Source of the DNA: Flavobacteriales bacterium
Lineage (GTDB): Bacteria; Bacteroidota; Bacteroidia; Flavobacteriales; Flavobacteriaceae
Assembly: GCA_038212575.1 (NCBI GenBank)
Contig: JBBQUI010000001.1
Span: 1 to 43,056, forward strand
Reading direction: 5' to 3'
DNA length: 43,056 nucleotides
A program made the position numbers and the translations under genes. Shown here piece by piece: positions 1 through 42,896 of the stretch (positions within the stretch are counted from its first letter, which is position 1; every line of letters starts with the position of its first letter). The notes under the pieces were generated by a model that saw only the letters and a list, made by a program, of their open reading frames with translations, had not been told where the DNA came from and did no database searches.

Positions 1-54
1 TTCAATGTTCAATGTTCAATGTTCAATGTTCAATGTTCAATGTTCAATGTTCAA
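1..54. repeat. Heptamer tandem array (TTCAATG)x7+, truncated by window start
   Basis: Seven perfect TTCAATG copies at 1-49 plus partial TTCAA. Confidence 0.95.
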
Positions 55-81
55 AAATAAATTTTCCGTTTCTTTCAAACA

Positions 82-112
82 AAATAACTCCATAACTTAT
101 TAACTAATAACT
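82..112. repeat. Degenerate ~7-mer array (TAACT core) abutting the YqeY stop codon
   Basis: aataactccataacttattaactaataact. Confidence 0.6.
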
Positions 113-560
113 AAGAAAGTCTTGCTTTCACAACACTCGAAATGGTTTTGCCATCTGCCTTTCCTGCAAGTTTTGCGCTGGCCAAGCCCATTACTTTGCC
201 CATATCTGCCATTGATGATGCTCCTGTTTCGGTAATTATTCCATCTACAATCTTGCTTACTTCTTCTTCACTTAACTGTTGCGGCAAAAACTGTTCTATC
301 ACTTTTGCTTGAATCAATTCCGGTTCAGCTAGGTCTAGGCGGTTTTGTTCTTTATAAATAGCCGCACTGTCCTTTCTTTGTTTTACTTGTTTTTGAAGTA
401 ATTTTATTTCTTCATCTTCGGTCAAATCTGCTTTAGCGCCCGTTTCAGTCTGTGCCAAAAGCAACGCAGATTTTACCGAACGTAAGGCCTCTAAAGATTG
501 CGTGTCCTTTGCTTTCATTGCGGTTTTCATCGCCTCCATTACCTTTTCCTGTAAGCTCAT
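111..560 (-). CDS. GatB/YqeY domain protein
   Basis: MKTAMKAKD..LRSVKSA, KQRKDSAAIY, FLPQQLSEEE, DMGKVMG motifs of the YqeY family; follows ftsZ. Confidence 0.92.
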   Translation of the reverse strand: MSLQEKVMEAMKTAMKAKDTQSLEALRSVKSALLLAQTETGAKADLTEDEEIKLLQKQVKQRKDSAAIYKEQNRLDLAEPELIQAKVIEQFLPQQLSEEEVSKIVDGIITETGASSMADMGKVMGLASAKLAGKADGKTISSVVKARLS

Positions 561-651
561 TTCTGTGTGTTTTTTATAGAGTGCGAAGATACTTAATAAA
601 GCGGAAACCCGAAACAGTAAAATTTAGATTATTGGGAATGAAAACACAATT

Positions 652-688
652 AAAAAGAAAAGCCCGAAATCAATACTGAAATTCGGGC
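652..688 (-). terminator. Probable intrinsic terminator after ftsZ
   Basis: GCCCGAA (662-668)/TTCGGGC (682-688) stem with adjacent A-rich run (U tract on minus strand). Confidence 0.6.
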
Positions 689-713
689 CCTGCTTTAAGT
701 GAAAAAGTATCAC

Positions 714-2678: not shown

Positions 2679-2743
2679 ATTTTTATATTTTATTGCAATT
2701 TTTAATTTTTTTTCTGCGTACTGTTACTGCATACTGGACACTT

Positions 2744-4102
2744 TTATTCTGCGTTATCCAAAAACTCCTTGAATTTTTCAGCCCATTTATCAAAAAACTT
2801 TTTTGAGGTCTTTTGTTCTTTGTCTTTGGATTTTTCTCCCTTTTTTTCGATCTCTTGATCAGATTCTGTTTCTCCAGCCTTCTCCTCTTTCTCCTGTGAA
2901 GTTGCTTCGTGCGTAAAACGTTTCATCAACGAAGATTTTTCTTTGCTTTCCAAACTGTTCAGCACAAGGCCAACTGCTGTTGCATACATTGGGCTGGTGG
3001 TTTCTGAATCGCTATCACCAGCTAAATGCTCGTTCGGATAACCAATACGGGTGTCCATTCCAGTGATATATTCCACCAATTGTTTGATATGCTGAAGCTG
3101 AGCTCCTCCGCCAGTAAGTACTATTCCTGCAATAAGTTTCTTTTTTTGGTCCTCGTGTCCGTAGTTTTTGATTTCCATATACACCTGCTCGATAATCTCG
3201 ATTACGCGTGCGTGGATTATTTTTGAAAGATTTTTTAAGCTGATTTCCTTCGGTTCCCTTCCACGAAGACCGGGAATAGAAACTATTTCGTTGTCTTTGT
3301 TTTCACCGGGCCAAGCTGAGCCAAATTTTATTTTCAGCAATTCCGCCTGCTTTTCAATAATAGAGCAACCTTCTTTGATGTCTTCTGTAATCACATTTCC
3401 ACCGAAAGGAATTACTGCCGTATGGCGAATGATTCCATCTTTGAAAATTGCCAAATCAGTCGTTCCCCCTCCTATATCAATCAGCGCTACACCTGCTTCT
3501 TTTTCCTCTTGGCTCAAAACTGCTTTTGCTGAAGCCAAGGGTTCCAAAGTGATTGCCGAAAGTTCCAATCCTGCACTTTTTATACATCGGCCTACATTTC
3601 TAATAGAGGATACCTGCCCAACCACCACGTGGAAATTTGCTTCCAAACGTGCGCCATACATTCCGATGGGTTCTTTTACCTCGGCCTGTCCATCCACCTT
3701 AAAATCCTGTGGCAAAACGTGCAGTATTTCTTCGCCCGGAAGCATCACAAGTTTGTGGACTTGGTTGCAAAGACGGTCAATATCTTCTTCGCTAATAACG
3801 TCTTCCCCATTTGGACGGGTAATATAATCGCTATGTTGAAGGCTTCTAATATGTTGCCCTGCAATACCCACAACCACTTCCTTTATCTTCATTCCCGAAG
3901 AAGTCTCAGCATCCTGCACCGCTTGTTGAATGGATTGAATGGTCTGGGTAATGTTGTTCACCACACCGCGGTGCACACCAAGGCTTTTCGCCTTTCCGAT
4001 TCCCAATATCTCCATTTTGCCATAATCATTTTTCCTACCAATCATAGCAACTATCTTGGTAGTTCCAATATCTAATCCTACAGCAATATTATCGTTTTCC
4101 AT
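2744..4102 (-). CDS. ftsA: Cell division protein FtsA
   Basis: VGLDIGTTKI, IDIGGGTTD, VLTGGGA, YATAVGL; upstream of ftsZ. Confidence 0.98.
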   Translation of the reverse strand: MENDNIAVGLDIGTTKIVAMIGRKNDYGKMEILGIGKAKSLGVHRGVVNNITQTIQSIQQAVQDAETSSGMKIKEVVVGIAGQHIRSLQHSDYITRPNGEDVISEEDIDRLCNQVHKLVMLPGEEILHVLPQDFKVDGQAEVKEPIGMYGARLEANFHVVVGQVSSIRNVGRCIKSAGLELSAITLEPLASAKAVLSQEEKEAGVALIDIGGGTTDLAIFKDGIIRHTAVIPFGGNVITEDIKEGCSIIEKQAELLKIKFGSAWPGENKDNEIVSIPGLRGREPKEISLKNLSKIIHARVIEIIEQVYMEIKNYGHEDQKKKLIAGIVLTGGGAQLQHIKQLVEYITGMDTRIGYPNEHLAGDSDSETTSPMYATAVGLVLNSLESKEKSSLMKRFTHEATSQEKEEKAGETESDQEIEKKGEKSKDKEQKTSKKFFDKWAEKFKEFLDNAE

Positions 4103-4106
4103 GGCC

Positions 4107-4823: not shown

Positions 4824-6168
4824 TCTTCAATTTTTGGGTTAATTTATTTACTTCAGCACCAATGTCTCCAGCACCTACCAATAGTTTTATTCTGCACTTT
4901 GATTTCAATAATACTTCCGGCAAAGCTGATTTAAATACCAATCTTTTATGTTGTGCATCCACCTGATTTAAAAGCCATTTTGAAGTAATTCCTTCAATGG
5001 GTTCTTCGCGGGCTGGGTAAATATCCAGCAGTACCACCTCGTCAAATTGCGAAAGACTTTTCGCAAAACCTTCTGCAAAATCTCGAGTTCTGCTGAAAAG
5101 ATGCGGCTGAAAAACAATCTGTTTGTGATCGTTCGGATACATTTCGTCCACCGCCTGAAACAGAGCGTCAATTTCTGTGGGATGATGTGCGTAATCATCA
5201 ATCAAAACCAAACTTTCTGATTTGATTTTATAAGAAAAACGACGTTTCACGCCTGTAAAAGTTGCCAATGCTCTGGGCAGGCAATCGGTTGGGGAGCCTG
5301 CTAAAATTGCCATGCCCAAAGCCATTATGGCATTTGTAAGATTGTGATGTCCTGGAAGATTGAAGGTCAAATCCTTTAAAATTCCGTTGGGGGTTTTTAA
5401 ATCGAAAAGATATGCGCCGTCTTTTATTTTTACGTTCTGCGCTTCGTAATCTGCTGGTTCTTCAACGGCAACGGTCATTCCGTCCAATGGAAGATTCTTT
5501 TTAATGAAAACGTTTTCTTCTTTTTCAACCAATTGTGCAAAAGTTCTGAAGGCAGTTTCTATTTCGGCTGCATCGCCATATATATCCAAATGGTCTGCAT
5601 CCATAGAGGTTACACAAGCAATATCCGGACGCAGCTGAAGAAATGAACGGTCAAATTCATCTGCTTCCACCACCGTTATTTCACTACCTCTGTAAATAAA
5701 ATTTGAATTGTAATTCTCCGCAATTCCACCCAAAAATGCAGTTACGGGCATATTACATTCCGCTAATAAATGTCCTAAAATTGCTGAAGTTGTGGTTTTT
5801 CCGTGAGTTCCCGCAACTGCCAAACAAAGCGTATTTTTTGAAACCTCGCCCAAAAGTTGAGCTCTTTTTAAGATTGAAAATTCTTCGGAAAAGAAGTGAT
5901 TCAAAATTTTGTTGCCCTTGGGAATTGCCGGCGTGTAAACCACCAAAACATTCTCTTTTGAAAGTACCGCCTTTTGAATTTCCGAAATTTCATCGTTGAA
6001 AGTCACGGGAATTCCTTCAGCAATCAATTCCTCCGTTAAATCAGTTGAAGTTTTGTCATAACCAAAAACAGCTTTCCCCTGCATTTTGAAATACCGCGCA
6101 AGCGCACTCATCCCAATGCCGCCGATACCGACGAAATAGAAAGTTTGGATGTTACTTAGGTTATTCAA
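4813..6168 (-). CDS. murC: UDP-N-acetylmuramate--L-alanine ligase
   Basis: FVGIGGIGMSALA, AGTHGKTTT, EADEFDRSFL, DDYAHHPTE. Confidence 0.98.
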   Translation of the reverse strand: MNNLSNIQTFYFVGIGGIGMSALARYFKMQGKAVFGYDKTSTDLTEELIAEGIPVTFNDEISEIQKAVLSKENVLVVYTPAIPKGNKILNHFFSEEFSILKRAQLLGEVSKNTLCLAVAGTHGKTTTSAILGHLLAECNMPVTAFLGGIAENYNSNFIYRGSEITVVEADEFDRSFLQLRPDIACVTSMDADHLDIYGDAAEIETAFRTFAQLVEKEENVFIKKNLPLDGMTVAVEEPADYEAQNVKIKDGAYLFDLKTPNGILKDLTFNLPGHHNLTNAIMALGMAILAGSPTDCLPRALATFTGVKRRFSYKIKSESLVLIDDYAHHPTEIDALFQAVDEMYPNDHKQIVFQPHLFSRTRDFAEGFAKSLSQFDEVVLLDIYPAREEPIEGITSKWLLNQVDAQHKRLVFKSALPEVLLKSKCRIKLLVGAGDIGAEVNKLTQKLKNEA

Positions 6169-6187
6169 AATTCAAGGTTTAATTTTT

Positions 6188-6254
6188 GTCGATGAGTCTA
6201 TGAGTTTAGGAGTTGAGTTTTCTTCTCAACCCATCGACTTATCAACTCATCGAC
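6188..6254. repeat. Inverted pair of 8-mer arrays forming a ~30-bp imperfect hairpin at the murG-murC junction
   Basis: GTCGATGA/GTCTATGA/GTTTAGGA/GTTGAG (6188-6217), 7-nt loop, CTCAAC/CCATCGAC/TTATCAAC/TCATCGAC (6225-6254). Confidence 0.8.
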
Positions 6255-7341
6255 TCATTTTTAATAATTTTTCAATTTCTTCAACTATATCTTTTGTGGC
6301 ATTTGGTTTCGCCAGTTTTTTAATATTTTCTGAAAGTGTCTTTTGTATTTCTTCGGAATTGATCAGTTCTGAAAATTGCTTTTCAAAGCTTGAATCCAAA
6401 TCGCTTTCTTTAATCAACAACGCCGCATTTTTTTCTGAAATTGCCATCGCGTTTTTGGTTTGGTGGTCTTCCGCCACATTGGGTGAAGGGATAAAAATTA
6501 CTGGTTTCCCCACCAAACACAATTCTGAAACCGATAGCGCGCCCGCTCTGGAGATAATAAAATTACTCGCAGCGTACGCCAAATCCATTCGGTTTAAAAA
6601 AGCATGTACCTGCACAGTTTCGGTTCCTTTGTTTTTATAGGTTTCTTCATAATACTTTCCGCATTGCCAAATGACTTGTAAATTGTTCTTTTCAAAAAAT
6701 GACAATGATTTTTCAATCAATTGGTTGATTCTTCGTGCACCCAAACTTCCGCCCAAAACTAACAGGGTTTTCTTCTCTTTTTTCAAATTGAAGAAAGCCA
6801 TTGCCTCTTCTTTTTTTGAAGAAATTTCCAGTAAATCCTGACGAACGGGATTGCCCGTCAGCTTTATTTTTTCGGAAGGAAAGAATTTTTCCATTCCTTC
6901 GTAAGCCACGCATATTTTTTGGACTTTACCACTCAACCACTTGTTTGTGATTCCGGCGTGGCTGTTTTGTTCTTGAATTAAACAAGGAATACCGCGCAAT
7001 GCGGCCATTCGCAGTAACGGAGCGCTTGCATAACCGCCGGTTCCTATTGCTACATCGGGTTTAAATTTTCGGAGTATTTTTTGGGATTTCCGAAGACTTG
7101 AAACGAGTTTCAACGGAAAAGCCAAATTCTGAAGTGATAAACTTCTTTGCAATCCAGAAATCCAAAGACCTTTGATTTTATAACCTGCTTGCGGTACTTT
7201 TTCCATCTCCATTCTATCTTTTGCGCCTACAAACAAAAATTCAGCATCGGGGAAACGGATTTTTAACTCGTTCGCAATGGCAACCGCCGGGTAAATATGA
7301 CCTCCGGTTCCCCCGCCTGATATGATGAATTTTGGTTTCAA
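6247..7341 (-). CDS. murG: Lipid II GlcNAc transferase MurG
   Basis: [34 protein letters not shown]; TTG start. Confidence 0.98.
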
Positions 7342-7369
7342 ATCTTGATTTTTGTTTTATTCATGAACA

Positions 7370-7419
7370 TCCCCTTTGCCCTCCCGAAGCAAGTTCGAAA
7401 CAAGTTCTACGAAGGGGGA
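7370..7419. repeat. REP-like nested palindrome
   Basis: Outer TCCCCTTTG...CGAAGGGGGA with inner CCGAAGCAAGTTCGAAAC. Confidence 0.55.
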
Positions 7420-7454
7420 ATTGATTCTACTTCTATTTTAATTCTTAACTTCAA

Positions 7455-7520
7455 TTTCGTATTTCGTATATCGTATTTCGTACTTCGTACTTCGTATTTC
7501 GTCTTCGTACTTCGTATTTC
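7455..7520. repeat. Heptamer array (TTCGTAT/TTCGTAC) directly after the ftsW stop
   Basis: atttcgtatttcgtatatcgtatttcgtacttcgtacttcgtatttc... Confidence 0.9.
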
Positions 7521-8710
7521 TAAATCGCTTCGCTTAAAATATCCAATGGGTTTTCCTCTTTTTCTTCTTTTGCAACTACTTCTCTTTTGGCACTTACGCT
7601 TAAAACCATTCCCAATGCCAAACACGTCATCCAAATGGAGGTTCCTCCACTACTTATCAATGGTAAATTTTGTCCTGTTACGGGGAATAATTCCACGGCA
7701 ACTGCCATATTAATCATTGCCCGAAAAACAATGGGCAAACCAACGCCAATGACGAGCAGTTTTCCAAAAATGGAAGTCGATTTGTGAGCTACCACTACAA
7801 TTCTGAAAAGCAGAAACAGGTAAAGCACCATTAAAAAAAGACCGCCAATGAGACCAAATTCCTCTACAATAATTGCATAAATAAAATCTGAAGAAGATTG
7901 TGGCAAAAAGTTTTTTTGAACACTTTTGCCCGGCCCCACACCCGTAACACCACCTGATGCAATTGCTATTTTTGCTTTTTCTATTTGATAATCTGCTTCA
8001 GTGTCTTTATTATCACTGAAATTTTCAACCCTGCTCATCCAAGTATCAACTCGGTTCGGGAATACATCTGGAAAAGCTTTTGCTGAAATCACAAAAAGAG
8101 TTAGGAAAATTAAGCCGGCACCCAGAATAATTCCTAAATATTTTAAAGGATAGCCCCCAATAAAAACAAGCATCACGATCATAACAAAAAAGATTGCTGT
8201 CGTGGAAAAGTTGGCCGGAAGGATTAAGGCTAGTACTATAAATACTGGAACCCAAAGCGGCAACAATGTTTCTTTGAAAGTAACTGTTTTGTCCTTTATC
8301 CGCGATAAATAGCGCGCAACATAAGTCATCAAAACCACACCTGCCAAGGTTGAAGTCTGAAATGTAACCCCAACGAATGGCACCCGAATCCACCGGCTGG
8401 CGTTGGAGCCTTCAATGGTTGTGCCTTCGGCCATCGTTATAATTAATAGCAATACAACTACGGGAATCGCAATAATAGACAAGCCCCGGAAATAGTGATA
8501 CGGAATTTTGTGAACGCCGTACAAAATGGCAAAACCTAATACCAAATGTGCAAAATGCTTAAACAGATACGGCAGTGTACTTCCATCGCCGTACAAATAT
8601 GCAAGATTACTGCTCGCGCTATAAACCGGCAAAAAAGAGAATAGCGCCAAAAGGCCCACTACTCCCCAAATTGCCCTATCGCCCTGTATGTATTGAAAAA
8701 TGTTTTTCAC
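7520..8710 (-). CDS. ftsW: SEDS peptidoglycan polymerase FtsW
   Basis: Multi-TM; ASRWI, FLPQSSSDFIYAIIVEEFG, LPLISSGGTS; dcw position. Confidence 0.96.
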   Translation of the reverse strand: MKNIFQYIQGDRAIWGVVGLLALFSFLPVYSASSNLAYLYGDGSTLPYLFKHFAHLVLGFAILYGVHKIPYHYFRGLSIIAIPVVVLLLIITMAEGTTIEGSNASRWIRVPFVGVTFQTSTLAGVVLMTYVARYLSRIKDKTVTFKETLLPLWVPVFIVLALILPANFSTTAIFFVMIVMLVFIGGYPLKYLGIILGAGLIFLTLFVISAKAFPDVFPNRVDTWMSRVENFSDNKDTEADYQIEKAKIAIASGGVTGVGPGKSVQKNFLPQSSSDFIYAIIVEEFGLIGGLFLMVLYLFLLFRIVVVAHKSTSIFGKLLVIGVGLPIVFRAMINMAVAVELFPVTGQNLPLISSGGTSIWMTCLALGMVLSVSAKREVVAKEEKEENPLDILSEAI

Positions 8711-8717
8711 TGAAAAA

Positions 8718-8803
8718 GTTTCTGGTTTCTGGTTTCTAGTTTCTGGTTTCTAAAATTTCGTATTTCCGATTTCGTATTTCGTATTTCGTATTTCGTATTT
8801 CAC
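8718..8803. repeat. Two adjacent heptamer arrays (TTTCTGG/TTTCTAG and TTTCGTA) at the murD-ftsW junction
   Basis: gtttctggtttctggtttctagtttctggtttc followed by atttcgtatttccgatttcgtatttcgtatttcgtatttcg. Confidence 0.9.
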
Positions 8804-8805
8804 AT

Positions 8806-10200
8806 TTATAAATTTCTAACAGCATCCTTAAACTGTCTGCCGCGGTCTTCGTAGTTTTCAAATAAATCAAAACTCGCGCAGGCCGGGGAAAGGAGAACGG
8901 TGTTATTCCTTTCAGCCAATTTGTATGCAACTTGCACTGCCATTGCCATAGAATCTGTCTCAATTATAGTGTCAACAACGTTTCCGAAGGCATTAATAAT
9001 TTTTTCATTATCCACTCCCAAACAGATTATCGCTTTTACTTTTTCGTTTACTAAAGGCAAAAGTTCGCTGTAATCGTTTCCTTTGTCCACCCCGCCTAAA
9101 ATCCAAACGGTTGGGTTTTCCATACTGTCCAACGCAAAATAAGTGGCGTTCACATTCGTGGCTTTGGAATCGTTGATGTACATTACATTATTGATTTTCA
9201 ACACTTTTTCAAGTCTGTGTTCAACACCCTGAAATCCTTCCAAACTCTCACGAATTGTTTGCTTTCTAATTCTCAATAAAGTGGCTACCGTTGAAGCGGC
9301 CATTGCGTTTTTAACATTGTGTTCTCCTTGGATTCCTATTGTTGCTATTGGCATAGTAAATTGATTGTTATCTATTGTTATTATTATTTCGTTGTTTCTT
9401 TTGAATGCTCCCTGATTCAGTTCTTTTTTAGTTGAAAAAGGAAGCGGTTGCGATTTTATAGGGTTTTGCGAAAGCCATTTAATTATTTCAACATCATCTG
9501 CATCATAAATGAAATAATCCTGCGACGTTTGGTTCATCGTTATCCGAAATTTTGAAGCGATATAATTTTCATATTTATAATCATATCTGTCCAAATGGTC
9601 CGGACTCAAATTGGTCAAAACCGCGATGTGCGGCGCAAAGGTTTCAATGCCGTCAAGCTGAAAACTACTGAGCTCGAGCACGTAATTCTCATACTTTTCT
9701 CCTCCCTTCGCGGAAGCTTCGGAAGAGGACTCGGAAACCTGTTCCGCGAAACTCTTCCCGATGTTTCCACCCAACGCCACATTCAATCCACCGTTTTTCA
9801 GCAATTCGTAAGTCAGACTTGCGGTGGTGGTTTTTCCGTTGCTTCCGGTGATTCCTACGATTGTCGCCTTTGTGAATTTCGCAGCAAACTCAATTTCAGA
9901 AATTACCTTCACTCCTTTTTCGCGCAATTTTTTAATGATTGGCGCTTTATCGGGAATTCCCGGACTTTTCATCACTAAATCTGCTGAAAGGATTTTTTCT
10001 TCGGAATGGCCTCCCTCTTCCCATTCAATTCCATTATTTATAAGAACTTGTTTGTAATTCTCTTTTATTTTTCCAAAGTCTGAAACAAACACCTCAAACC
10101 CTTTCTTTTTTCCTAAAATGGCTGTTCCAACTCCGCTTTCGCCTCCACCCAGAATTACGATTTTCGATTTACGATTGACGATTTTAGATTGTTTGCTCAT
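8806..10200 (-). CDS. murD: UDP-MurNAc-L-Ala--D-Glu ligase
   Basis: ILGGGESG, GITGSNGKTTT, LELSSFQL, NDSKATN, LSPACASFD. Confidence 0.98.
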   Translation of the reverse strand: MSKQSKIVNRKSKIVILGGGESGVGTAILGKKKGFEVFVSDFGKIKENYKQVLINNGIEWEEGGHSEEKILSADLVMKSPGIPDKAPIIKKLREKGVKVISEIEFAAKFTKATIVGITGSNGKTTTASLTYELLKNGGLNVALGGNIGKSFAEQVSESSSEASAKGGEKYENYVLELSSFQLDGIETFAPHIAVLTNLSPDHLDRYDYKYENYIASKFRITMNQTSQDYFIYDADDVEIIKWLSQNPIKSQPLPFSTKKELNQGAFKRNNEIIITIDNNQFTMPIATIGIQGEHNVKNAMAASTVATLLRIRKQTIRESLEGFQGVEHRLEKVLKINNVMYINDSKATNVNATYFALDSMENPTVWILGGVDKGNDYSELLPLVNEKVKAIICLGVDNEKIINAFGNVVDTIIETDSMAMAVQVAYKLAERNNTVLLSPACASFDLFENYEDRGRQFKDAVRNL

Positions 10201-10590
10201 TTTGAATTTAATCTTTTACGAACTGTATTAATCGATGCAATCGTTATTGATAGTAATTCATCAGCCTCTTTGTGCAATCGGTCAATTTCCATGTGATGCA
10301 TTTCTGACATTTCTTTTAATATTTCCAAGAAATACATACTCTCATCTGCTTCCTCTTCAACAATTTTCAACTTATTTATGAAATCCTTATCCGATTTTCC
10401 TCTGCTCGCCGCTCTGTAATTTGCACCCACCGAACTCGAACATCTTATTAATTGATTGCAGTAAGCATTATATTCTCGTGAAATGGGAAATCTCATACAT
10501 AACTTTCCACAATCAACTGCAAAGCGCAACATTCTTCTTTTAATCTCTTCCTTCATAAATCGTAAATCTAAAATCGTATATCTTAAATCC
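10156..10590. repeat. Inverted heptamer arrays bracketing the four-helix-bundle gene
   Basis: TACGATTTTCGATTTACGATT (10156-10176) is the reverse complement of AATCGTAAATCTAAAATCGTA (10558-10578) with one mismatch. Confidence 0.88.
10197..10556 (-). CDS. Four helix bundle protein (23S rRNA intervening-sequence protein family, PF05635/TIGR02436-like)
   Basis: QLIRCSSSVGANYRAASRGKSDKDFINKLKIVEEEADESMYFLEIL matches the family signature; ATGA overlap with murD. Confidence 0.93.
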   Translation of the reverse strand: MKEEIKRRMLRFAVDCGKLCMRFPISREYNAYCNQLIRCSSSVGANYRAASRGKSDKDFINKLKIVEEEADESMYFLEILKEMSEMHHMEIDRLHKEADELLSITIASINTVRKRLNSK

Positions 10591-10593
10591 TTC

Positions 10594-11826
10594 TTATCTA
10601 ATCTTTAGTGTTACAATCGTAATAATCGCTAAAAAAATACCCACGATCCAAAACCGCGTTACAATTTTACTTTCGTGGAAACCCTTTATTTGGTAGTGAT
10701 GATGTAGTGGTGCCATTCTAAAAATTCGCCTACCATCTCCAAATCGTTTCTTTGTGAATTTAAACCAGCCTACTTGCATAACCACTGAAAGGTTTTCCAT
10801 CAAAAATATTCCGCAGAGAATGGGTATCAACAATTCTTTTCGAACCGCAATGGCGATTACTGCTATAATTCCCCCAATAGTTAAACTGCCCGTATCGCCC
10901 ATAAAAACTTGTGCGGGATAGGTATTGTACCATAAAAACCCGATGAGCGCTCCCACAAATGCGGTGATGAAAATGGTCATTTCACCAGTGTTTGGGATAT
11001 ACATAATATTGAGATAGTCAGAAAAAATAACGTTGCCCGAAACCCATGCAAAAAGTGCGAGCGTGATTCCAATAATTGCAGAAGTTCCCGCTGCAAGCCC
11101 ATCTATTCCATCGGTGAGATTGGCGCCGTTTGAGACCGCGGTGATAATAAAAATTACAATCGGGATGAAAATCAGCCACACATAACTTTGATAATTTTCC
11201 CCTGCCCAACTGATCAGTTCGGAATAATTAAACTCGTTTTCCTTTACAAAAGGAATAGTGGTTAGCATGGCTTTGTCCTTCACATAAAACTTATTGGTGG
11301 GACCTTTTGCTATTATTTCAGTTTCTGCTCCAGGATCCGTAATGCTTCGCTGAACAATGATGTCTGGGTGAAAATACATTGTTGCACCAACGAACAAGCC
11401 CAACCCAATCTGTCCAATTACCTTGAATTTCCCAGGCAGACCCTGTTTGTCATTTTTAAATTTTTTGATGTAGTCGTCAATAAAGCCGATGGCTCCCATC
11501 CAAAGAGTGGTTACAATAAGCAGGATTACATAAATATTTTCAAGCTTTGCGAAAAGTAGAACGGGAATTAGCGTGGCGAGAATTATTATGATACCACCCA
11601 TTGTTGGAGTTCCAGCTTTTTCGTTTTGACCATCCAAACCAAGGTCGCGGATAGATTCACCAACTTGTTTTTTTCTTAAGTAATTGATGATTTTTTTACC
11701 GTAAACCGAAGCTATAAAAAGTGAAAGAATAACTGCCAATGCCGCGCGAAACGTAATAAATTCAAACAAACCTGCTCCAGGCATGTCGTACGTTTTCTCC
11801 AAATAGTCGAATAGGTAATATAGCAT
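10594..11826 (-). CDS. mraY: Phospho-N-acetylmuramoyl-pentapeptide transferase
   Basis: [41 protein letters not shown]. Confidence 0.99.
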
Positions 11827-11829
11827 TTG

Positions 11830-13293
11830 CTATTTGTTTAGCGTTATTAAAAGTTGGTTCACTATTTTAAAATCATCAAAATCGGAGCGTTCACCATTAA
11901 TTTCCTGATAGGTTTCGTGACCTTTTCCAGCAATTAAAATGATGTCGTTTTCCTTTGCCATTTGGCAGGCTGCCTTAATAGCCTCCTTTCTATTGGTTAT
12001 TGAAATTGTCTTTTTATAATGTTCGGCAGGCACGCCTGTTTCAATTTGTTCTATAATTTTTTCGGGGTTTTCGGTTCGTGGATTATCGCTGGTAAAAACC
12101 ACTTTTGTGCTCAACGAAGCAGCGATGTTTCCCATCACCGGTCGTTTCTGCGCATCGCGATCTCCGCCACAGCCTACAACTGTAATCACTTCTTCATTAC
12201 CAGTGCGGATACTGTTTATGGTTTCCAAAACATTTTTCAATGCATCGGGTGTATGTGCATAATCAACTATTGCAGTGATTTTCTTTTCCGAAATCAAATA
12301 TTGAAACCGTCCGCCCACACTTTCCAGTGTGCTCATAATTTGAAGGATCTCAAGTTCCTTCAATCCTAAAAGTTGGGCTGTTCCATAGATTGCCAACAAA
12401 TTATAAGCATTGAAACCACCAATCAATTTCACCCACAACTCTTGGTTGTTTATTTTCAAAAGTTGTCCCGTAAATTGGCTTTCCAGAACCTGTGCTTTAA
12501 AATCAGCATAGGTTTTTAGCGCGTAGGTTTGTTTTTTCGCTTTTGTGTTTTGAAGCATCACCACCCCGTTTTTGTCATCCACATTTACCAATGCGAAAGC
12601 AGTTTTTGGTAATTCATCAAAAAAGGATTTTTTCACATCACGGTATTCAGCGAAATCTTTGTGATAATCCAAATGGTCGTGAGAAAGATTGGTGAAAACA
12701 CCACCAACAAAGTGAAGGGCTTCGGTACGTTTTTGATGGATTCCGTGGGAACTCACTTCCATAAAACAATATTCCACGCCCGCGTCTACCATTTCACGCA
12801 GATACATATTAATGGTCAATGAATCTGGGGTTGTATGCGTGGCTTTAAATTCAGTATTGCCAACCATTATTTTTACCGTGGAGAGTAAGCCCGCTTCCAA
12901 ACCAGCTTTTTTGAAAAGTTGATATAATAAAGAAGAAACTGTGGTTTTTCCATTTGTTCCGGTAATTCCTACGAGCTTTAATTCTTCCGAAGGATTTCCG
13001 TAGTAATTGGCAGCCATAATAGCCAAAGCTTTGTGCGAATCTGAAACTTGCACATATGTTATTCCATTGACTATATTTTCAGGCAAGGTTTCGCAAATAA
13101 TAGCCAGGGCGCCTTGGTCAGCCGCTTTTTTTATGAATTGATGTCCATCGGAAATGGTTCCTTTAATTGCAATAAAAACATCGTTTAATGAAACTTTTCG
13201 GGAATCAAATTCAAGATTGTTTATGGCCACGGAAGTACTGCCAACGACGCTTTCGATGGTAACTTTGTACAATATGTCCTTTAACAATATCAC
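11830..13293 (-). CDS. murE: UDP-MurNAc-tripeptide synthetase (meso-DAP ligase)
   Basis: GITGTNGKTT, MEVSSHG, DHLDYH, VDYAHTPDA, DNPR (DAP-specific motif), AGKGHETYQ. Confidence 0.98.
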   Translation of the reverse strand: MILLKDILYKVTIESVVGSTSVAINNLEFDSRKVSLNDVFIAIKGTISDGHQFIKKAADQGALAIICETLPENIVNGITYVQVSDSHKALAIMAANYYGNPSEELKLVGITGTNGKTTVSSLLYQLFKKAGLEAGLLSTVKIMVGNTEFKATHTTPDSLTINMYLREMVDAGVEYCFMEVSSHGIHQKRTEALHFVGGVFTNLSHDHLDYHKDFAEYRDVKKSFFDELPKTAFALVNVDDKNGVVMLQNTKAKKQTYALKTYADFKAQVLESQFTGQLLKINNQELWVKLIGGFNAYNLLAIYGTAQLLGLKELEILQIMSTLESVGGRFQYLISEKKITAIVDYAHTPDALKNVLETINSIRTGNEEVITVVGCGGDRDAQKRPVMGNIAASLSTKVVFTSDNPRTENPEKIIEQIETGVPAEHYKKTISITNRKEAIKAACQMAKENDIILIAGKGHETYQEINGERSDFDDFKIVNQLLITLNK

Positions 13294-15292: not shown

Positions 15293-15390
15293 TTCAGTAC
15301 GCAGTATTCAGTGGTCAGTAATCAGTTATTTGGTTTCTCTTTTCTTTATTCTTTATTCTTTATTCTTTTTTCTTTTTTCTTTTTTCTCTA
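15293..15390. repeat. Two heptamer arrays (CAGTnnn and TTTATTC/TTTTTTC) at the ftsL-ftsI junction
   Basis: cagtacg cagtatt cagtggt cagtaat cagttat, then ctttatt x3 and ctttttt x3. Confidence 0.85.
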
Positions 15391-15713: not shown

Positions 15714-15836
15714 GTGATTCGGGATTCGTTAATTCGGGATTCGGGATTCGGGATTTGGGATTTGGGATTTGGGATTAGTCATCCAGCATCCAACACCCCG
15801 CATCTTTTCTCTTTATTCTTTTATCTCTATTCTTTT
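15714..15836. repeat. Heptamer arrays (GGGATTC/GGGATTT; CTTTATT-like) at the rsmH-ftsL junction
   Basis: ttcgggattcgggattcgggatttgggatttgggatttgggatt at about 15734-15777; second pyrimidine-rich array at about 15805-15836. Confidence 0.85.
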
Positions 15837-18170: not shown

Positions 18171-18255
18171 AGGTTTCAGGTTTCAGGTTTCAGGTTTCAG
18201 GTTTCAGGTTTTTAAAAAAAAACATTTTTCCCATATAACTCAATACTCAATACTT
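18171..18255. repeat. Heptamer arrays (AGGTTTC)x5+ and ACTCAAT repeats between hydrolase and engB
   Basis: aggtttcaggtttcaggtttcaggtttcaggtttcaggttt starts immediately after the stop codon; actcaatactcaatact precedes the next start. Confidence 0.9.
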
Positions 18256-18260: not shown

Positions 18261-18872
18261 ATGCAAATTAAATCTGCGGAATTTGTGATGAGCAACAGCG
18301 ATGTTGCCAAATGCCCAAAAGACCGTTTGCCGGAATACGCTTTTATTGGCCGAAGCAACGTGGGAAAATCTTCGCTCATCAATATGTTGATGTTGCGCAA
18401 AAACTTGGCAAAAACCTCGGGAAGACCTGGGAAGACACAGCTTATCAATCATTTTCTAATAAACAAAAACTGGTATTTGGTAGATTTGCCGGGTTACGGT
18501 TACGCCCGCGTTTCAAAAAGCAGCAAGAAAGTATTTCAGAAATTTATTACCAATTATTTTGAAAAACGGGAGCAAATGGTGCTCGCCTTTGTTTTGGTGG
18601 ACTGTCGTCACGAACCTCAGCCCATCGATATGGAATTTATGCAATGGATGGGCGAAAGCGGGATTCCTTTCAACATAATTTTCACAAAAGCTGATAAACT
18701 GAAACCAAAAGCATTGGAAAGAAACATTAAGGCCTATAGTGAAAAAATGCTGGAAACTTGGGAGGAAATGCCGCCTTATTTTATTACTTCAGCGAGTGAT
18801 TCTTCAGGAAGGGATGAAGTTTTAAATTATATTAGCGAACTAAACTCTTCAATTCCGAATTCTGAATTCTGA
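18261..18872 (+). CDS. engB: Ribosome biogenesis GTPase YihA/YsxC (EngB)
   Basis: [26 protein letters not shown]. Confidence 0.97.
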
Positions 18873-18880
18873 ATTCAGAA

Positions 18881-19219
18881 TTATTCCTTTTTCAGCTCTA
18901 ACTTTTCTGCAAAATAATCACAGAAATCGCGCATTGTGGCGCTCATTTTATCATCATTTGTAGCGCGTTGAAACGTATCTGCCATGGCGCTCAAGGTTTG
19001 GTGAAAAAAGATTTTCATTTCGTCCACGGGCATGTCTTTGGCCCAAAGATCTATTCTAAGCGATTCCTTTTTTTTACTGTCCCAAACAGAAAGCATCACC
19101 GCCTTGGTTTCTTCGTTTGAAACACCACCGTCTTCCGCAGTCCAACGAATGGTTTCGGGAATTTTGTTTTCGTCAAGACCTACATTTAGTTTTATTTCAG
19201 AAGTATGTTTTATTGCCAT
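18881..19219 (-). CDS. gldC: Gliding motility protein GldC
   Basis: LDENKIPE, WTAEDGG, LRIDLW, DMPVDEMKIFFHQ; downstream of gldB. Confidence 0.93.
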   Translation of the reverse strand: MAIKHTSEIKLNVGLDENKIPETIRWTAEDGGVSNEETKAVMLSVWDSKKKESLRIDLWAKDMPVDEMKIFFHQTLSAMADTFQRATNDDKMSATMRDFCDYFAEKLELKKE

Positions 19220-21955: not shown

Positions 21956-23914
21956 CTACAACACTCTGTTCAATTTTTCGGAAAGCACTTTTTTTAGACT
22001 TATGTAATCCACAATTTCTTGCAGACCCGTTTCCTTTTCAGGATTGTTTTCCTGCTTCATCGTTTCGGAAAGTTCATTTATTTTTTGGGAAACCAAATGC
22101 CTGCGAAGGTTTAGAATAGTTTCACTAACCATTTGGGCAATGGTCTGTTCTTTTTCTTTTACATAAATTTCCTTACGTTCCCAGTTGTGGAGTATGTACC
22201 TTTCCTCTTCCATCAAAACGTGGGTAATTGCAGATGCCATTTCTGGCTGCAGTTCATTAATAAAACTTTCTGCTTTGGCTTCCGGGTTTTGGGTAAAACG
22301 GTTTACCACTTCATAATACAAATCTTTAAATTCTTGATTTGTAAACTCTATTTCGTCTTCCTGCAAATCCAAAAATATTTTCTCGTAAACTCTCGATTTG
22401 TGAATCTCTGGCTTTAATGAAATTTCACCCTTTTCGTTTGCCTCAATAATTAATTCCTCAAAATCTTCTTCAACATTCCCATAGAGCAACAACAACTCAA
22501 TGATTTTTTGTTCTAACTGAAACTGTACATCTACTTTTTCAATCTTTTTTTCTGAAGAAATAACTTCAAACGCTTCATGGGGAATTTCAGCTTTTTTTGA
22601 AGCATCTTTTCTCTCCTTTTGAAAAATCTGCGCAAGTGTATTGAAAAGAACTTGCTCTGAAATATCCATAATGCGCGAACATTCCTTTATATATACTTCG
22701 CGCTTGATTACATCTGGAATTTTAGCAATACTATGTACCATATCGTGTATGGTTTCAGCCTTTTTTATAGGATCATTTTTTGCATCGGAAGCGAGCAGCG
22801 AGGCTTTAAAAGTGATAAAATCCTTGGCGTTTTCTTCCAAATAGAGCGTGAGTTCTTCCAACGAATTTTTACGCGAAAAACTGTCCGGATCCTCCCCTTC
22901 TGGAAAAGTGCAGATTTTCACGTTCATCCCCTGCTCCAAAATTAAGTCGATACCCCGAAGCGATGCGCGAAGACCCGCCGCATCACCGTCAAAAAGAACG
23001 GTTATGTTTTTGGTAAGTCTATTTATCAACCGAATCTGTTCCGAAGTCAAAGCAGTTCCTGAAGAGGAAACTACATTGTGGATTCCTGTTTGATAAAACT
23101 GGATAACATCGGTATAACCCTCAACCAAATAGCAATTGTCTTCTTTGGCAATACTTTGTTTGGCGTGAAAAATACCGTAGAGCACTTTGCTTTTATGGTA
23201 AATATCGCTTTCGGGAGAGTTTAAATATTTCGCCGCTTTTTTATCCGAAGTTAAGATCCGCCCGCCAAAACCAAGCGTGCGACCACTCATACTAAGGATT
23301 GGGAACATTACCCTTCCCTTAAAACGGTCGAACTGTTTTTCTTCTTTTACTATGGACAAACCTGTTTTTTCGAGAAACTCTAGCTTGTAGCCTTTTTTTA
23401 TGGCGTGGCTGGTAAAGGCATCCCAAGAATCAGGCGAATAACCGAGCTCAAACTTTTTGATAGTTTCATCAGTAAAGCCACGTTCCTTAAAATAGGAAAG
23501 ACCGATGGCTTTGCCCTCCTCGGTTTTTAGTAATGTACTGTGGAAATAATCTTTGGCGAATTCGCTTACCAAATAAAGACTTTCCCTCTCGTTGGCCTGT
23601 TCTTTATCTTCGGCGGTTTGCTCGGTTTCCTCTACTTCAATCCCGTACTTTTTCGCCAAGAATTTTATGGCTTCGGGATAAGTGAAGTGTTCATGCTCCA
23701 TCAAAAATGCCACCACATTCCCCCCTTTTCCGCTACTGAAATCCTTCCAAATCTGTTTTACGGGACTTACCATAAAACTTGGCGAACGTTCGTCAGTAAA
23801 CGGACTGAGGCCTTTGTAGTTGCTGCCCGATTTCTTCAACTGCACAAAATCGCCGATTACCTCCTCTACTCGAGCAGTTTCAAAAACGTTGTCTATGGTG
23901 GTTTTGGAGATCAG
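21956..23914 (-). CDS. dnaG: DNA primase; N-terminus extends beyond the ORF-track start to a probable CTG at 23914
   Basis: In-frame (L/M)ISKTTIDNVFETARVEEVIGDFVQLKKSG; FKGRVMFPI, KYLNSPES, VEGYTDV, FDGDAAG, DPD. Confidence 0.95.
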   Translation of the reverse strand: MISKTTIDNVFETARVEEVIGDFVQLKKSGSNYKGLSPFTDERSPSFMVSPVKQIWKDFSSGKGGNVVAFLMEHEHFTYPEAIKFLAKKYGIEVEETEQTAEDKEQANERESLYLVSEFAKDYFHSTLLKTEEGKAIGLSYFKERGFTDETIKKFELGYSPDSWDAFTSHAIKKGYKLEFLEKTGLSIVKEEKQFDRFKGRVMFPILSMSGRTLGFGGRILTSDKKAAKYLNSPESDIYHKSKVLYGIFHAKQSIAKEDNCYLVEGYTDVIQFYQTGIHNVVSSSGTALTSEQIRLINRLTKNITVLFDGDAAGLRASLRGIDLILEQGMNVKICTFPEGEDPDSFSRKNSLEELTLYLEENAKDFITFKASLLASDAKNDPIKKAETIHDMVHSIAKIPDVIKREVYIKECSRIMDISEQVLFNTLAQIFQKERKDASKKAEIPHEAFEVISSEKKIEKVDVQFQLEQKIIELLLLYGNVEEDFEELIIEANEKGEISLKPEIHKSRVYEKIFLDLQEDEIEFTNQEFKDLYYEVVNRFTQNPEAKAESFINELQPEMASAITHVLMEEERYILHNWERKEIYVKEKEQTIAQMVSETILNLRRHLVSQKINELSETMKQENNPEKETGLQEIVDYISLKKVLSEKLNRVL

Positions 23915-23966
23915 ATTGTTGGAATTTTAGGTTGTTGGACTTTTAGATTGTCGGATTGATAGATTT
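23912..23966. repeat. Degenerate 8-mer array (GATTGTTG-type) abutting the dnaG start
   Basis: agattgtt ggaatttt aggttgtt ggactttt agattgtc ggattgat agattttt. Confidence 0.75.
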
Positions 23967-24148
23967 TTGTTGTGTAAAAATAGGGATTTCTTTATAGTTT
24001 CAAGTTTAAAGTTGCAAGTATAGATGGAAAGCTGGCCGTTCTATATTTCTTGCTGCTTTATGTCTCTAATAACTATTTGCCATAAAAAAATTAAGCCCTG
24101 CAAACTTTCATCTACAGAGCTTTTTTCAAAAAATAATTTGTTATTGAA

Positions 24149-25910: not shown

Positions 25911-26016
25911 TAATGAATAATGTATAATGCGTAATGAATAATGTGAAATGAATAATTATTGATTTATGGTACTGGCTGAAGTTTTGTTATTAATTGCTCA
26001 TTACTAATTACTAATC
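25911..26016. repeat. Heptamer arrays TAATGnn and TTACTAA-type in roughly opposite orientation
   Basis: taatgaa taatgta taatgcg taatgaa taatgtg aaatgaa (25911-25952); ttgctca ttactaa ttactaa (to about 26014). Confidence 0.75.
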
Positions 26017-27483: not shown

Positions 27484-27600
27484 TCCTTCGCTGAAAAAGC
27501 TTCGGAGGACGAGTGTTTCAGGTTGCAGGTTTCAGGTTTCAAGTTGCAGGTTGCAGGTTGAAAAAACAAATTCACAAACTCACAGATTCACAAATTCACT
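27484..27600. repeat. REP-like palindrome followed by a 7-mer (GGTTTCA/GGTTGCA) array and an 8-mer (AAATTCAC) array
   Basis: tccttcgctgaaaaagcttcggagga; ggttgca ggtttca ggtttca agttgca ggttgca; aaattcac aaactcac agattcac aaattcac. Confidence 0.8.
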
Positions 27601-35241: not shown

Positions 35242-35260
35242 AGGGTTTATGCTATATCTA

Positions 35261-40280: not shown

Positions 40281-40293
40281 TTGGTGTAGGTGT

Positions 40294-42195
40294 TTATTGT
40301 ATATTTTGTTTTAAAAGTATTTTTGTTTTGTCCAGCCGGGCGATGGATCGCAAAAAATCTCGGTAATTTTCATATTCAGAAGGAGGATACTCGCCTTTGT
40401 TAATGAGTATTTTTCGACTGTAGATTAATTTGTTCTCAGAAGTTTTGCTGAAACCCATTTCATATTTTCCGAATTTGGTTTCCAAAATGGTTTCTTCCGG
40501 AAGCCCATCTATCTCAAAATTTTCAGGTATTTCTACTTCTACCGTATCAACATCAACATATCCGGTTCCTATAAAAAGATTTTGTTTTCGATTTTCAATG
40601 CGCGGCGGAATGTATTGGTTTTGGTTGAAAATATTGGCGCAGAAAAGATAATCGCTGCCCACGGCATTTGCATAATTGGGAATGTTTAGCGATAAATTTT
40701 CAGTGAAAACTACTTCCTCCCTATCGTTATTCAATTTCACATCGGTTATGGAAAAGCCATTGATGTAGCTCCATCTGTTTTTGTATTTTTCGTCCAAATC
40801 TTCCTTTTTTTCTTTCGGAAGCAAATACTTGTCATCATACTGAAGCCCTCTGGAAATACCTTGAAAACTGGCAGTTACGTTTCCTTCTTTATCAACTTTT
40901 ACTTTTGAAATATTTTCTTGGGAATTTTCTTCGGTTTTGTAAATTTTTGTATGTGCAATTTTCCCTCCTTCGGGAGTAATTATCAATACATCCCTATCGT
41001 CAGTAAAATCGCCAATAAACCCATACGGTGCATCTTGACTTGTACATTCCAGCCATGTCATTTCTTCCCCATCGGGAATGGCCAAAATCATATGGTTTCC
41101 CTGTAGCGACGAAAAATCTGAAACAATATTTCGTTCACTGGTATCGCCATACAATATGGTATAATAGGAAGGAACGCCAACAGCTTCAAGCATAGCTTTT
41201 GTGTAATTTGTCAATGCCTTGCAATCGCCATAACTCAGTTTATCAACCTCTGAAGCCAACATAGGTTTCCAACCGCCAATGCCAATCTGGATGCTTACGT
41301 AACGCACTTTGTCTTGAAGGAATTGATAAATTTTTCGAGCCTTCCCTTCATTGGTCGTTTCATTTGCAACAAGGCTTTTTATTCGTGCCAATGTGCCTTC
41401 CGGCAAATCACGAACATCTGAAAGCAAACTTTTGTCCATCCAACTTCCAAATTGCTGCCAATCCTTGCCTGAGCCAGAAGTACCTTTCAACCTAAAATTG
41501 TCAAGTGCGATGGTTACGTTTGGAAAAATATCGCTAGGCGAAGGACTGTGTTCCTCATATCGAATTGTAGTAAGATTTGATGCCGAAAAAGTGATTTCCT
41601 CAGGAGTTTCAGAAATTGTTATATCCCAACCTTCCAGATTTTTGGACTTGTATTTTGGTTTGTTTAATGGATCATACTTAATCTTTAAAACACTTTTTTG
41701 GGTACTTTCAGCATATCCGCTTAAAGGATACCAAGGGCCTATGAATGCAGAATCACCCGTTTCGGTTTCGCTGTCAAAAACTACAATATAAGGATAGGTT
41801 GTTGGAGTATATTTTAAATACAACGCTCGCGAATCCATGTACATATTATTGCCCGTGCGGCTCACGTCCATAAAATCTTTCTTTTTAAAGTGCTCAATTT
41901 CCTTTCCCAAGGCATTGTAGATTCGCACTTCAACATCCTTAACCCGCGAGTTTTCATTATAATATTCATAAAGGTTGGTATCTTCATCACCAAGTTTGTT
42001 AAAAACCGCGATAACCCGGTGCGCTTTTTCCTTCATTTTGCCTACGTCGGTAACATCAATTTCAACCAATTCATCAATCAAAACACTGTTGGAATATTCT
42101 ATAAGCTCTTTTTTAATGGAGGCTATGGAATAGTCCTTTTGGGCATAAATATGAACTGAACAAAGAAGTACTGCCAAGCAAAAAATGATTTTCAT
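40294..42195 (-). CDS. DUF3857/transglutaminase-like exported protein with intact Cys-His
   Basis: VRYVSIQIGIGGWKP, YGDCKAL, NHMILAI, WLECT. Confidence 0.9.
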   Translation of the reverse strand: MKIIFCLAVLLCSVHIYAQKDYSIASIKKELIEYSNSVLIDELVEIDVTDVGKMKEKAHRVIAVFNKLGDEDTNLYEYYNENSRVKDVEVRIYNALGKEIEHFKKKDFMDVSRTGNNMYMDSRALYLKYTPTTYPYIVVFDSETETGDSAFIGPWYPLSGYAESTQKSVLKIKYDPLNKPKYKSKNLEGWDITISETPEEITFSASNLTTIRYEEHSPSPSDIFPNVTIALDNFRLKGTSGSGKDWQQFGSWMDKSLLSDVRDLPEGTLARIKSLVANETTNEGKARKIYQFLQDKVRYVSIQIGIGGWKPMLASEVDKLSYGDCKALTNYTKAMLEAVGVPSYYTILYGDTSERNIVSDFSSLQGNHMILAIPDGEEMTWLECTSQDAPYGFIGDFTDDRDVLIITPEGGKIAHTKIYKTEENSQENISKVKVDKEGNVTASFQGISRGLQYDDKYLLPKEKKEDLDEKYKNRWSYINGFSITDVKLNNDREEVVFTENLSLNIPNYANAVGSDYLFCANIFNQNQYIPPRIENRKQNLFIGTGYVDVDTVEVEIPENFEIDGLPEETILETKFGKYEMGFSKTSENKLIYSRKILINKGEYPPSEYENYRDFLRSIARLDKTKILLKQNIQ

Positions 42196-42282
42196 CCGAA
42201 TAAAATATTTGTGAAATTAGGAAGATGGAATGCCCAAACCATACCTTTTAATTAATTTGAAAATTTTAAATGGGCATTTCAT
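42192..42282 (-). promoter_or_regulatory. Second copy of the ~90-nt 5' leader (uORF MKCPFKIFKLIKRYGLGIPSS, 42217-42282)
   Basis: Aligns to 20172-20261; contains an ATGAAATGCCCA...TGGGCATTCCAT stem. Confidence 0.55.
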
Positions 42283-42345
42283 GAAATCTTATTAATGTTT
42301 GGCAATATAGAAATTTCCGAAAGGTTAAAAAAATGTTAAAGGAAC

Positions 42346-42798
42346 TTATTCTCTTCTTTTTGAATCGATCCAAATTGTGACGGGGCCGTTATTAATAAGT
42401 GCAACGTCCATCATCGCTCCGAAGCTTCCAGTTTTAACCTTCTTATTTGTTTCATTTTCAAGCTGAAGGAGAAATTTTTTATAAAGTGGAATGGCGATTT
42501 CGGGCTTTGCGGCATTTATGAAAGAAGGCCGATTTCCCTTTTTAGTATTTGCGTGAAGTGTAAATTGGCTTACTACTAAACAATCGCCATCAACATCTTG
42601 CACTGAAAGATTCATAGCATCATTTTCATCTGAAAAAATCCGCAAACGGGCAATTTTTCCAGCTAACCATTTGAAGTCTTCTTGAGTATCCTCGGCTTCA
42701 ATTCCCAATAAAATTAGCAGTCCCTGATTTATTTCAGAAAAAATATTTCCTTCAATGGTTACGGATGCTTTTTTTACTCTTTGGATTAAAACGCGCAT
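42346..42798 (-). CDS. dtd: D-aminoacyl-tRNA deacylase
   Basis: [31 protein letters not shown]. Confidence 0.98.
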
Positions 42799-42896
42799 TT
42801 AGATTATTGGATTGTTAGATTCTTAGATTATTGGATTGTTAGATTATTGGATTGTTAGATTATTGGATTCTTAGATTGTTGGATTGTTGGATTATT
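42799..42896. repeat. 8-mer tandem array (AGATTATT/GGATTGTT/AGATTCTT), about 12 units, abutting the dtd start
   Basis: ttagattattggattgttagattcttagattattggattgttagattattggattgtt... Confidence 0.92.

Follow-up and report, generated by a model that had tools for sequence, protein, structure and literature searches.

The window analysed here is a stretch of 43,056 nt from the genome assembly of a Flavobacteriales bacterium (GCA_038212575.1, contig JBBQUI010000001.1, positions 1 to 43,056), in which many gene junctions carry tandem arrays with a repeat unit of 7 or 8 bases. Our analysis indicates that these arrays are likely the abandoned ends of promoterless junction cassettes, which carry a small gene for a four-helix-bundle protein (or for a second protein family, GxxExxY) between two inverted repeat arms. 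We assign this reading a probability of about 0.55. The wider statement that the arrays derive from cassette arms, either as remnants or as progeny, can be made with considerable confidence.

The window is contig C1 of genome G000 (2.88 Mb in 283 contigs, 90.6% complete). It contains the dcw cluster, gldB/C, dnaG and further core genes, and its MurD protein is 92-94% identical to Aequorivita records. In the following, G-numbers denote genomes and L-numbers denote loci. Genes were called with a simple custom caller, and some of the start codons are wrong. Coordinates and units of arrays in the window were taken from Tandem Repeats Finder (TRF), whereas intergenic arrays were counted with a custom detector, using shuffling in 40-nt blocks as control. 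For the whole genome, TRF revealed 772 arrays with a smallest period of 7 in 242 and of 8 in 59 of them. The custom detector found 209 intergenic arrays, 153 of period 7 and 28 of period 8, compared with about 0.3 after local shuffling. In a preliminary description of the window the period had been given as always 7 or 8; period 7 dominates, period 8 adds to it, and the remaining arrays have other periods. It had also stated that the unit varies by site, which applies genome-wide (94 distinct 7-mer units among 248 TRF rows). Most units share an AAY/RTT frame (85% of 238 vs 65% after shuffling). With 13 arrays against a mean of 4.9 per 43 kb, the window is array-rich.

The intact cassette of the window is composed of three parts:

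10556 to 10589, minus strand: left arm, TRCGR-type heptamers from just past the mraY stop codon to the cassette ATG (TRF)
10197 to 10556, minus strand: four-helix-bundle gene (TIGR02436 / PF05635), 119 aa, in the mraY-murD interval, its stop codon overlapping the murD start (ATGA; profile match, model)
10155 to 10184, minus strand: right arm, the left arm in reverse complement, located within the murD coding sequence in place of the native first codons (TRF, alignment)

A cassette comprises a left arm, a small gene and a mirror-image right arm, and stretches between the stop codon upstream and the start downstream. In the window, the right arm encodes an extended MurD N-terminus (approximately residues 6-15). 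Both inverted arms had been missing from the earlier list of arrays, as had a complementary 8-mer pair at murG/murC (6188-6258). The protein of the window scores above the curated cut-offs of the two hidden Markov models (78.1 bits vs 24 for TIGR02436; 56.7 vs 33.8 for PF05635). Its predicted structure shows four helices with a predicted local distance difference test (pLDDT) value of 91 and template modelling (TM) scores of 0.83 to 2RLD and 0.80 to 2GSC. A profile search of the cargo returned TIGR02436/PF05635 only, with no catalytic domain and no tyrosine transposase of the IS200/IS605 type; the predicted model is all-helical. The genome contains 17 matches to the family.

Cassette arms were surveyed in 11 genomes, where 21 of 162 cassette loci were left out as truncated or off-centre and 141 genes were kept. 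Inverted arms were identified at 110 of these genes (above the 95th percentile of mismatched flank pairs). Their period is 7 in 81 and 8 in 21 cases, a 7:8 ratio as in the genome arrays, and the median paired length is 30 nt. Almost all armed cassettes (106 of 110) follow a co-directional gene, and in 84 of these 106 the left arm starts at most 15 nt from the stop of that gene. In one subfamily the polarity is reversed, and the AAY strand is found in the left arm (G000 C76, C78:9285; L163, L179, L198, L283). Up to five or six different cassettes were found at successive junctions of a single gene cluster (G008 C14:370354-377661; G006 C20:278447-292117; G000 C144:5403-6458). At G000 C35:5145-6097, a heptamer/octamer array expanded to about 500 nt is located next to a broken four-helix-bundle gene. 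A role of the arms as all-frame stop cassettes was considered and rejected, as no general rule was found (left arms 1.85 vs 1.71 frames for shuffled sequence, right arms 1.72 vs 1.35).

GxxExxY (TIGR04256) is the second cargo, with 5 genes in this genome. Inverted 8-9-mer arms were recognized by eye in about 12 of the 14 loci displayed. Genes with their own arms of this type are located at G000 C14:12793-13185 and on C8, C35 and C113 (L318, L321, L324, L326, L328). The family, which we take to have a PD-(D/E)XK nuclease fold, would be a candidate mobiliser.

For comparison of the arrays outside cassettes (orphans) with cassette ends, 291 orphan arrays were scored by cosine similarity only against arms from other genomes. 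Orphan units matched such arms in 54% of cases vs 19% for shuffled units. After stop codons, 49 orphans are left-arm-like and 4 right-arm-like (33 unclear), while before start codons 35 are right-arm-like and 3 left-arm-like (14 unclear). This polarity is largely lost when units are shuffled with strand and composition kept (p ~2e-11). The same inward polarity occurs where the stop is distant from every start codon (18:0), and convergent junctions show it too (15:1). Since the arms are inverted, it shows inward-facing ends and not the insertion strand; its use as proof of strand-specific insertion was rejected on logic, because a flipped cassette yields the same arm orientations. Local duplication of codon-adjacent sequence, plausible by eye at ftsW/murG, was likewise rejected as an origin: genome-wide, the agreement of units with the flanking coding sequence does not exceed that at permuted junctions (22% vs 19% permuted; 19% vs 22% permuted; n=102). 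Long-range pairing of orphans across several genes was not detected either, as none of 259 pairs spaced 1.5-8 kb apart is inverted.

The junctions were also followed among relatives. At mraY/murD, 41 genomes of the genus comprise 19 empty junctions, 10 with a cassette (2 of them internally deleted), 5 with right-arm traces (clear in L103, slight in four) and 7 with other inserts. A single junction can be empty, full, internally deleted or one-armed among sister genomes. On a tree of ftsI-murE-murC-ftsZ, the states cassette and empty need 9 changes vs 8.5 for shuffled labels. The cassette allele replaced the first MurD codons, so that plain deletion cannot restore the empty allele; as the simplest explanation for the turnover at this junction we infer allele exchange by homologous recombination. 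The cargo gene at mraY/murD has a ratio of nonsynonymous to synonymous substitution rates (dN/dS) of 0.05 at a dS of 1.5, like murD (8 intact copies), and is accordingly old and conserved. The orphan at ftsW/murG in the window shares its TRCGR type with the left arm of the mraY/murD cassette. At the ispB/sigma junction, left and right arms reassort freely among relatives. In contigs from four DNA sequencing runs, which cover positions 6000-12500 in fragments, no cassette-skipping joint occurs among the joints listed (12 others were not displayed).

The preliminary description had proposed that the arrays are left and right arms from repeated gain and loss of cassettes. Sequence and inward orientation match the arms, and full, empty and decayed junctions exist; the pairing of the two arrays of a junction did not hold, as complementary partner arrays were found in 5 of 58 two-family junctions. 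According to the favoured reading, the small gene would be lost while the arms stay. Alleles would then be swapped between lineages by homologous recombination via the conserved flanking genes, which would result in mismatched left/right pairs, and slippage would subsequently alter the copy number.

Several further inserts were observed at these junctions. L103 carries at murG/murC a 385-nt insert with long complementary 8-mer arms around approximately 150 nt without a long open frame, possibly a fully decayed cargo. At the 3' end of mraY (window 10600-10620), many cassette alleles repeat the left-arm unit within the final mraY codons by synonymous choice, while most displayed empty alleles do not, which may reflect linkage or extended pairing. 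Palindromic inserts resembling repetitive extragenic palindromic (REP) sequences use the same slots directly after the stop codon, as a GTAG-led type at ftsW/murG (L090, L094, L098, L102, L114) and at rsmH/ftsL (L090, L093). They are sometimes combined with a heptamer right arm. A third type, a C-rich/G-rich hairpin insert, follows the heptamer arm at ftsW/murG (window 7345-7450) and recurs at murD/ftsW in L095 and L090.

The four-helix-bundle family is present in 161 of 201 Bacteroidota genomes. A correlation of array load with these genes, considered in the preliminary description, was borne out with a rho of 0.63 against gene density over 200 Bacteroidota genomes (six-copy AAY heptamer pattern; 0.70 for family means), for a pattern that also counts cassette arms and overlapping hits, has a high reversed control in many genomes and is drawn from kin that are not independent. 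The correlation is significant in 4 of the 6 larger families. At least 5 pattern matches were detected in 5 of 40 genomes without the gene vs 84 of 99 genomes with five or more genes, and 28 of the 40 had no match at all. Circularity of the phylum-wide pattern is avoided by a test specific for the subfamily of the window. Four-copy TRCGR arrays, all of them apart from the detected cassette, are present in 6 of 15 genomes that have this subfamily vs 9 of 135 that lack it (p=0.001; reversed control p=0.18; one subfamily covered).

Proteins and arms change together. In cassettes with different neighbours, the arms are similar in 2% of pairs with less than 30% protein identity, in 48% at 60-70% and in 67% above 70%. 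Fourfold-degenerate sites are saturated in pairs above 60% identity (0.33 vs 0.31). Each protein subfamily keeps its own heptamer despite saturated synonymous sites. The TRCGR core is kept in 58 of 74 relatives of the window protein, down to 40% identity and in DNA of 31-67% GC, vs 11 of 133 other genes. In this genome, array positions 0, 1, 4 and 5 (AAY frame) show 3-4% variation, and positions 2, 3 and 6 show 8-10%. Mismatches between paired arms comprise 74 G·U and 79 A·C, compared with 50 and 10 in 208 terminator-like hairpins of this genome. In a second cassette set from metagenome loci (5 of 79 left out), the numbers are 29 and 22. The lack of a G·U excess and the location of an arm inside murD argue against selection on an mRNA stem. 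The sequence patterns favour two arrays that are each under sequence constraint, like inverted protein-binding sites on DNA. The protein may bind its cognate heptamers as arrays of inverted DNA sites, which would fix period and core and aid persistence or spread of the cassette.

A number of observations weigh against abandoned cassette ends as the source of the arrays or against DNA as the ligand. Orphans are far more numerous than four-helix-bundle genes in this genome (291 vs 17), and 42% of them match no sampled arm at cosine 0.5. No four-helix-bundle gene was found at rsmH/ftsL, ftsL/ftsI, murG/murC, abh/ysxC or ispB/sigma in 20-41 genus genomes or about 70 family loci, so most orphans are without a witnessed parent. 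Among the surveyed genes, 31 of 141 have no significant arms and 33 have direct repeats. Broken and deleted copies of the cassette gene exist, which makes the protein dispensable at a given site. The correlation between arrays and genes is absent in 2 of the 6 larger families and weak for dcw loci alone (rho 0.23 and 0.26, p ~0.1), and the limits of the AAY pattern given above apply to the phylum-wide values. In other genomes, the position-specific conservation within arrays is less sharp. Among solved relatives with a ligand, the closest is Avd, which is reported to bind RNA (bioRxiv 10.1101/2023.10.23.563531).

The first of these observations, together with the junctions that show many arm combinations and no gene in any genome examined, would also be expected if most orphans never enclosed a gene and are non-autonomous, REP/REPIN-like progeny, copied with help of the cognate protein or a partner. 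The co-occurrence of TRCGR arrays with their subfamily fits this explanation equally well. In addition, neighbouring junctions share units above chance (9 of 79 pairs at 0.7-1.5 kb, several from one locus, vs a background of about 2%). However, single arms and mismatched pairs dominate, whereas both ends should be retained by a unit that disperses. At mraY/murD there are decay intermediates, full cassettes of the matching subfamily are located at ftsW/murG in four relatives, and the cargo has no catalytic domain. We regard such progeny as an unlikely origin for most orphans, although the best placed of the alternatives.

As an analogy, the REP-associated tyrosine transposase (RAYT)-REP system is the closest working one for the cassettes. 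It is described with a gene between two inverted repeats, co-variation of gene and repeat, and cognate extragenic repeats elsewhere that are predicted by gene presence (PMC2817692). In contrast, the cargo here is a 119-aa all-helical protein without transposase match, and the repeats are tandem 7/8-mers instead of self-palindromic 20-40-mers. Unlike rayt genes, which are reported to be fast-evolving (PMC2817692), the cargo is under the strong purifying selection seen at mraY/murD.

Less likely still is that the arms form an RNA stem in the operon transcript, like that of an intervening sequence (IVS), either for excision by RNase III or for a translation relay from stop to start, with a protein that binds RNA. 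In the predicted fold, the arms of the window pair with each other around the gene, with a z value of only -1.35 for the whole region, and the cassettes nearly always follow a co-directional gene. The 23S rRNA IVS of Coxiella is reported to have a protein of the same family (S23p), a gene within terminal inverted repeats, tandem heptamers of variable copy number in the stem and by the start codon, RNase III cutting at the first repeat and frequent decay of the open reading frame (PMC4990558). In contrast to the rRNA IVS, dozens of units per genome are located here between protein-coding genes and not inside an rRNA gene, the heptamers are subfamily-specific, one arm lies in a coding sequence and orphan arms occur genome-wide. 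The rRNA IVS may be a special case of the class that landed in the 23S gene. A stem of RNA should also prefer G·U over A·C mismatches, as the terminators do and the arms of neither cassette set do. Cutting of the stem would remove the murD start, as the right arm of the window is downstream of this codon. The downstream start lies more than 12 nt upstream of the arm end in 11 of 68 cassettes with a resolved start, and unpaired single arms persist. The preliminary description had called the cassettes IVS-like; if this means an RNA stem that is excised from the transcript, it does not agree with the absent G·U excess and with a right arm that encodes MurD residues.

Avd of the diversity-generating retroelements bears on the same question. 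It has the same fold as the predicted model (TM 0.67-0.73) and is reported to form a pentamer; its nucleic acid ligand, encoded beside the avd gene, is an RNA stem-loop contacted by all five protomers (bioRxiv 10.1101/2023.10.23.563531). A homopentamer is reported for XCC0516 as well as for Avd (PMC4990558; bioRxiv 10.1101/2023.10.23.563531). In contrast to Avd, with which it shares 13-14% identity, the cassette of the window has no adjoining reverse transcriptase (its neighbours are mraY and murD). No match to reverse transcriptase (PF00078) was found in the 90.6% complete G000, and this enzyme was dropped as mobiliser. No enzyme that would mobilise the cassettes was identified.

An origin of the arrays in place by 7-base-preferring polymerase slippage, with retention where A-rich sequence aids translation initiation and with incidental cassettes, is very improbable: in most bacteria no long repeat is as common as the heptamer, with slippage as the proposed cause (Mrazek 2007, as reported in PMC4679880), initiation in Bacteroidia is reported to favour upstream adenines (PMC6847099) and copy number differs between relatives (one DNA run from a close strain has a 14-nt, two-unit deletion at 8725), but the units match arms of other genomes and do not match flanking coding sequence above permuted junctions, the inward polarity holds away from starts and at convergent junctions, and most gene-free genomes are without any array match. 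Slippage accounts for copy number and, as an origin, is already largely refuted. A dedicated mechanism or a protein that reads the periodicity had been suggested instead of random slippage in the preliminary description. The units are indeed not local slippage products, and the sequence-specific constraint fits a putative protein reader.

Placement of the arrays was compared with gene borders in the whole genome. Adjacency to stop and start codons, as initially described, was confirmed for one side: in gaps with room for at least 100 nt, adjacency was observed at 31 of 129 stop ends vs 7.8 expected, but for start codons in 15 of 163 cases vs 17.0 expected. Adjacency to start codons is visible in tight junctions only. 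The stop-end bias can be partly due to selection, since roomy gaps may hold promoters. Two different arrays per junction, described as the usual case, apply to most junctions in this window only; genome-wide they are found in 33 of 208 junctions with arrays, or in 58 of 318 if the threshold is relaxed. A concentration inside operons was not found, as arrays are present in 142 of 1814 co-directional (7.8%), 36 of 375 convergent (9.6%) and 30 of 364 divergent junctions (8.2%). All 11 array regions described initially for the window were recovered by TRF as period-7/8 arrays, identical in position or shifted by a few bases, with 23913-23955 being weak and called with period 16. The array sites outside the intact cassette are:

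1 to 54, minus strand: perfect heptamer array in right-arm orientation, clipped by the contig end (cosine 0.62 to L168 arm)
83 to 114, minus strand: short heptamer array from the yqeY stop (TRF)
6188 to 6258, minus strand: complementary 8-mer arm pair at murG/murC with no gene enclosed, left arm entering the last murG codons (predicted hairpin -29.5 kcal/mol)
7454 to 7520, minus strand: orphan left arm of TRCGR type from the ftsW stop (in L062, L336, L337 and L338, ftsW/murG holds a full cassette of the cognate subfamily)
8718 to 8751, minus strand: orphan array of right-arm type, from a different subfamily, which stops 7 nt short of the ftsW start and is not complementary to the neighbouring array (cosine 0.71 to L146 arm)
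8755 to 8801, minus strand: orphan left arm of TRCGR type after the murD stop, unit identical to the left arm of cassette L360 (arm comparison)
15293 to 15387, minus strand: a pair of dissimilar heptamer arrays at ftsL/ftsI, one of ambiguous arm class that begins at the ftsL stop, the other reaching to 3 nt from the ftsI start (TRF)
15716 to 15836, minus strand: two unlike heptamer arrays at rsmH/ftsL, where many relatives have a 4-nt stop-to-start gap (TRF, relatives)
18171 to 18254, plus strand: left-arm-type array at a hydrolase stop and unrelated right-arm-type array before the ysxC start (cosines 0.70 to L212, 0.86 to L175)
18851 to 18882, unstranded: heptamer array across the convergent ysxC/gldC stops (TRF)
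23913 to 24019, minus strand: pair of weak arrays in front of dnaG, one of which ends at its probable non-ATG start (TRF)
25911 to 26015, minus strand: two heptamer arrays separating a pair of unannotated genes, the first beginning at the stop codon (TRF)
27515 to 27599, minus strand: 8-mer array at the polyprenyl-synthase stop and unlike right-arm-type 7-mer array, with many other left/right combinations in relatives (cosine 0.80 to L157)
42799 to 42896, minus strand: 8-mer right-arm-type array ending at the dtd start (cosine 0.57 to L235)

The start codon of dnaG is apparently CTG here (TTG or CTG in relatives), directly after the array (window 23912-23915). Among relatives, in-frame stops were observed in a polyprenyl synthase match (3 TGA; G043:C17:44268-45059) and in a MurD match (5 stops; G041:C1:2679273-2680634). 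L029, from a record titled as a metagenome-assembled genome of Klebsiella pneumoniae, encodes a MurD with 68% identity to that of the window, as in Flavobacteriaceae loci, and is probably mis-binned.

Arrays with the unit TAACTGA were reported by MacGregor in intergenic DNA of Beggiatoaceae, Cyanobacteria and Bacteroidetes, before start codons (PMC4679880). Like the arrays here, they are forward before starts and once reversed just after a stop (Flexibacter), their presence varies between sister Aequorivita species and their unit fits the AAY frame (PMC4679880). In contrast to our analysis, that study concerns one unit and proposes a translational regulator, and the text searched does not mention an S23 or intervening-sequence protein (PMC4679880). 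In the literature covered by our search, which most subscription papers and supplements lie beyond, no paper links heptamer arrays to four-helix-bundle genes outside rRNA.

More tentatively, and with the balance of probability somewhat against it, S23/Avd-like proteins could be sequence-specific DNA readers of their own heptamer arrays. They would form a transposase-free class that colonises gene junctions, with each subfamily as a protein-repeat pair, the rRNA IVS as one landing site and these elements as the main source of the 7-base repeat excess in many bacterial genomes. If the arrays are cassette ends, this would account in part for the surplus of 7-base repeats that has long been noted in bacterial genomes. 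Two old loose ends are joined in this way, the dominance of heptamers and a very widespread four-helix-bundle family of unknown function. Each subfamily gains a named candidate ligand, so that a binding assay can probe its function. Through such inserts, essential cell-wall genes acquire new stop codons, start codons and terminal residues, which is relevant to annotation as well as to the evolution of operon junctions.

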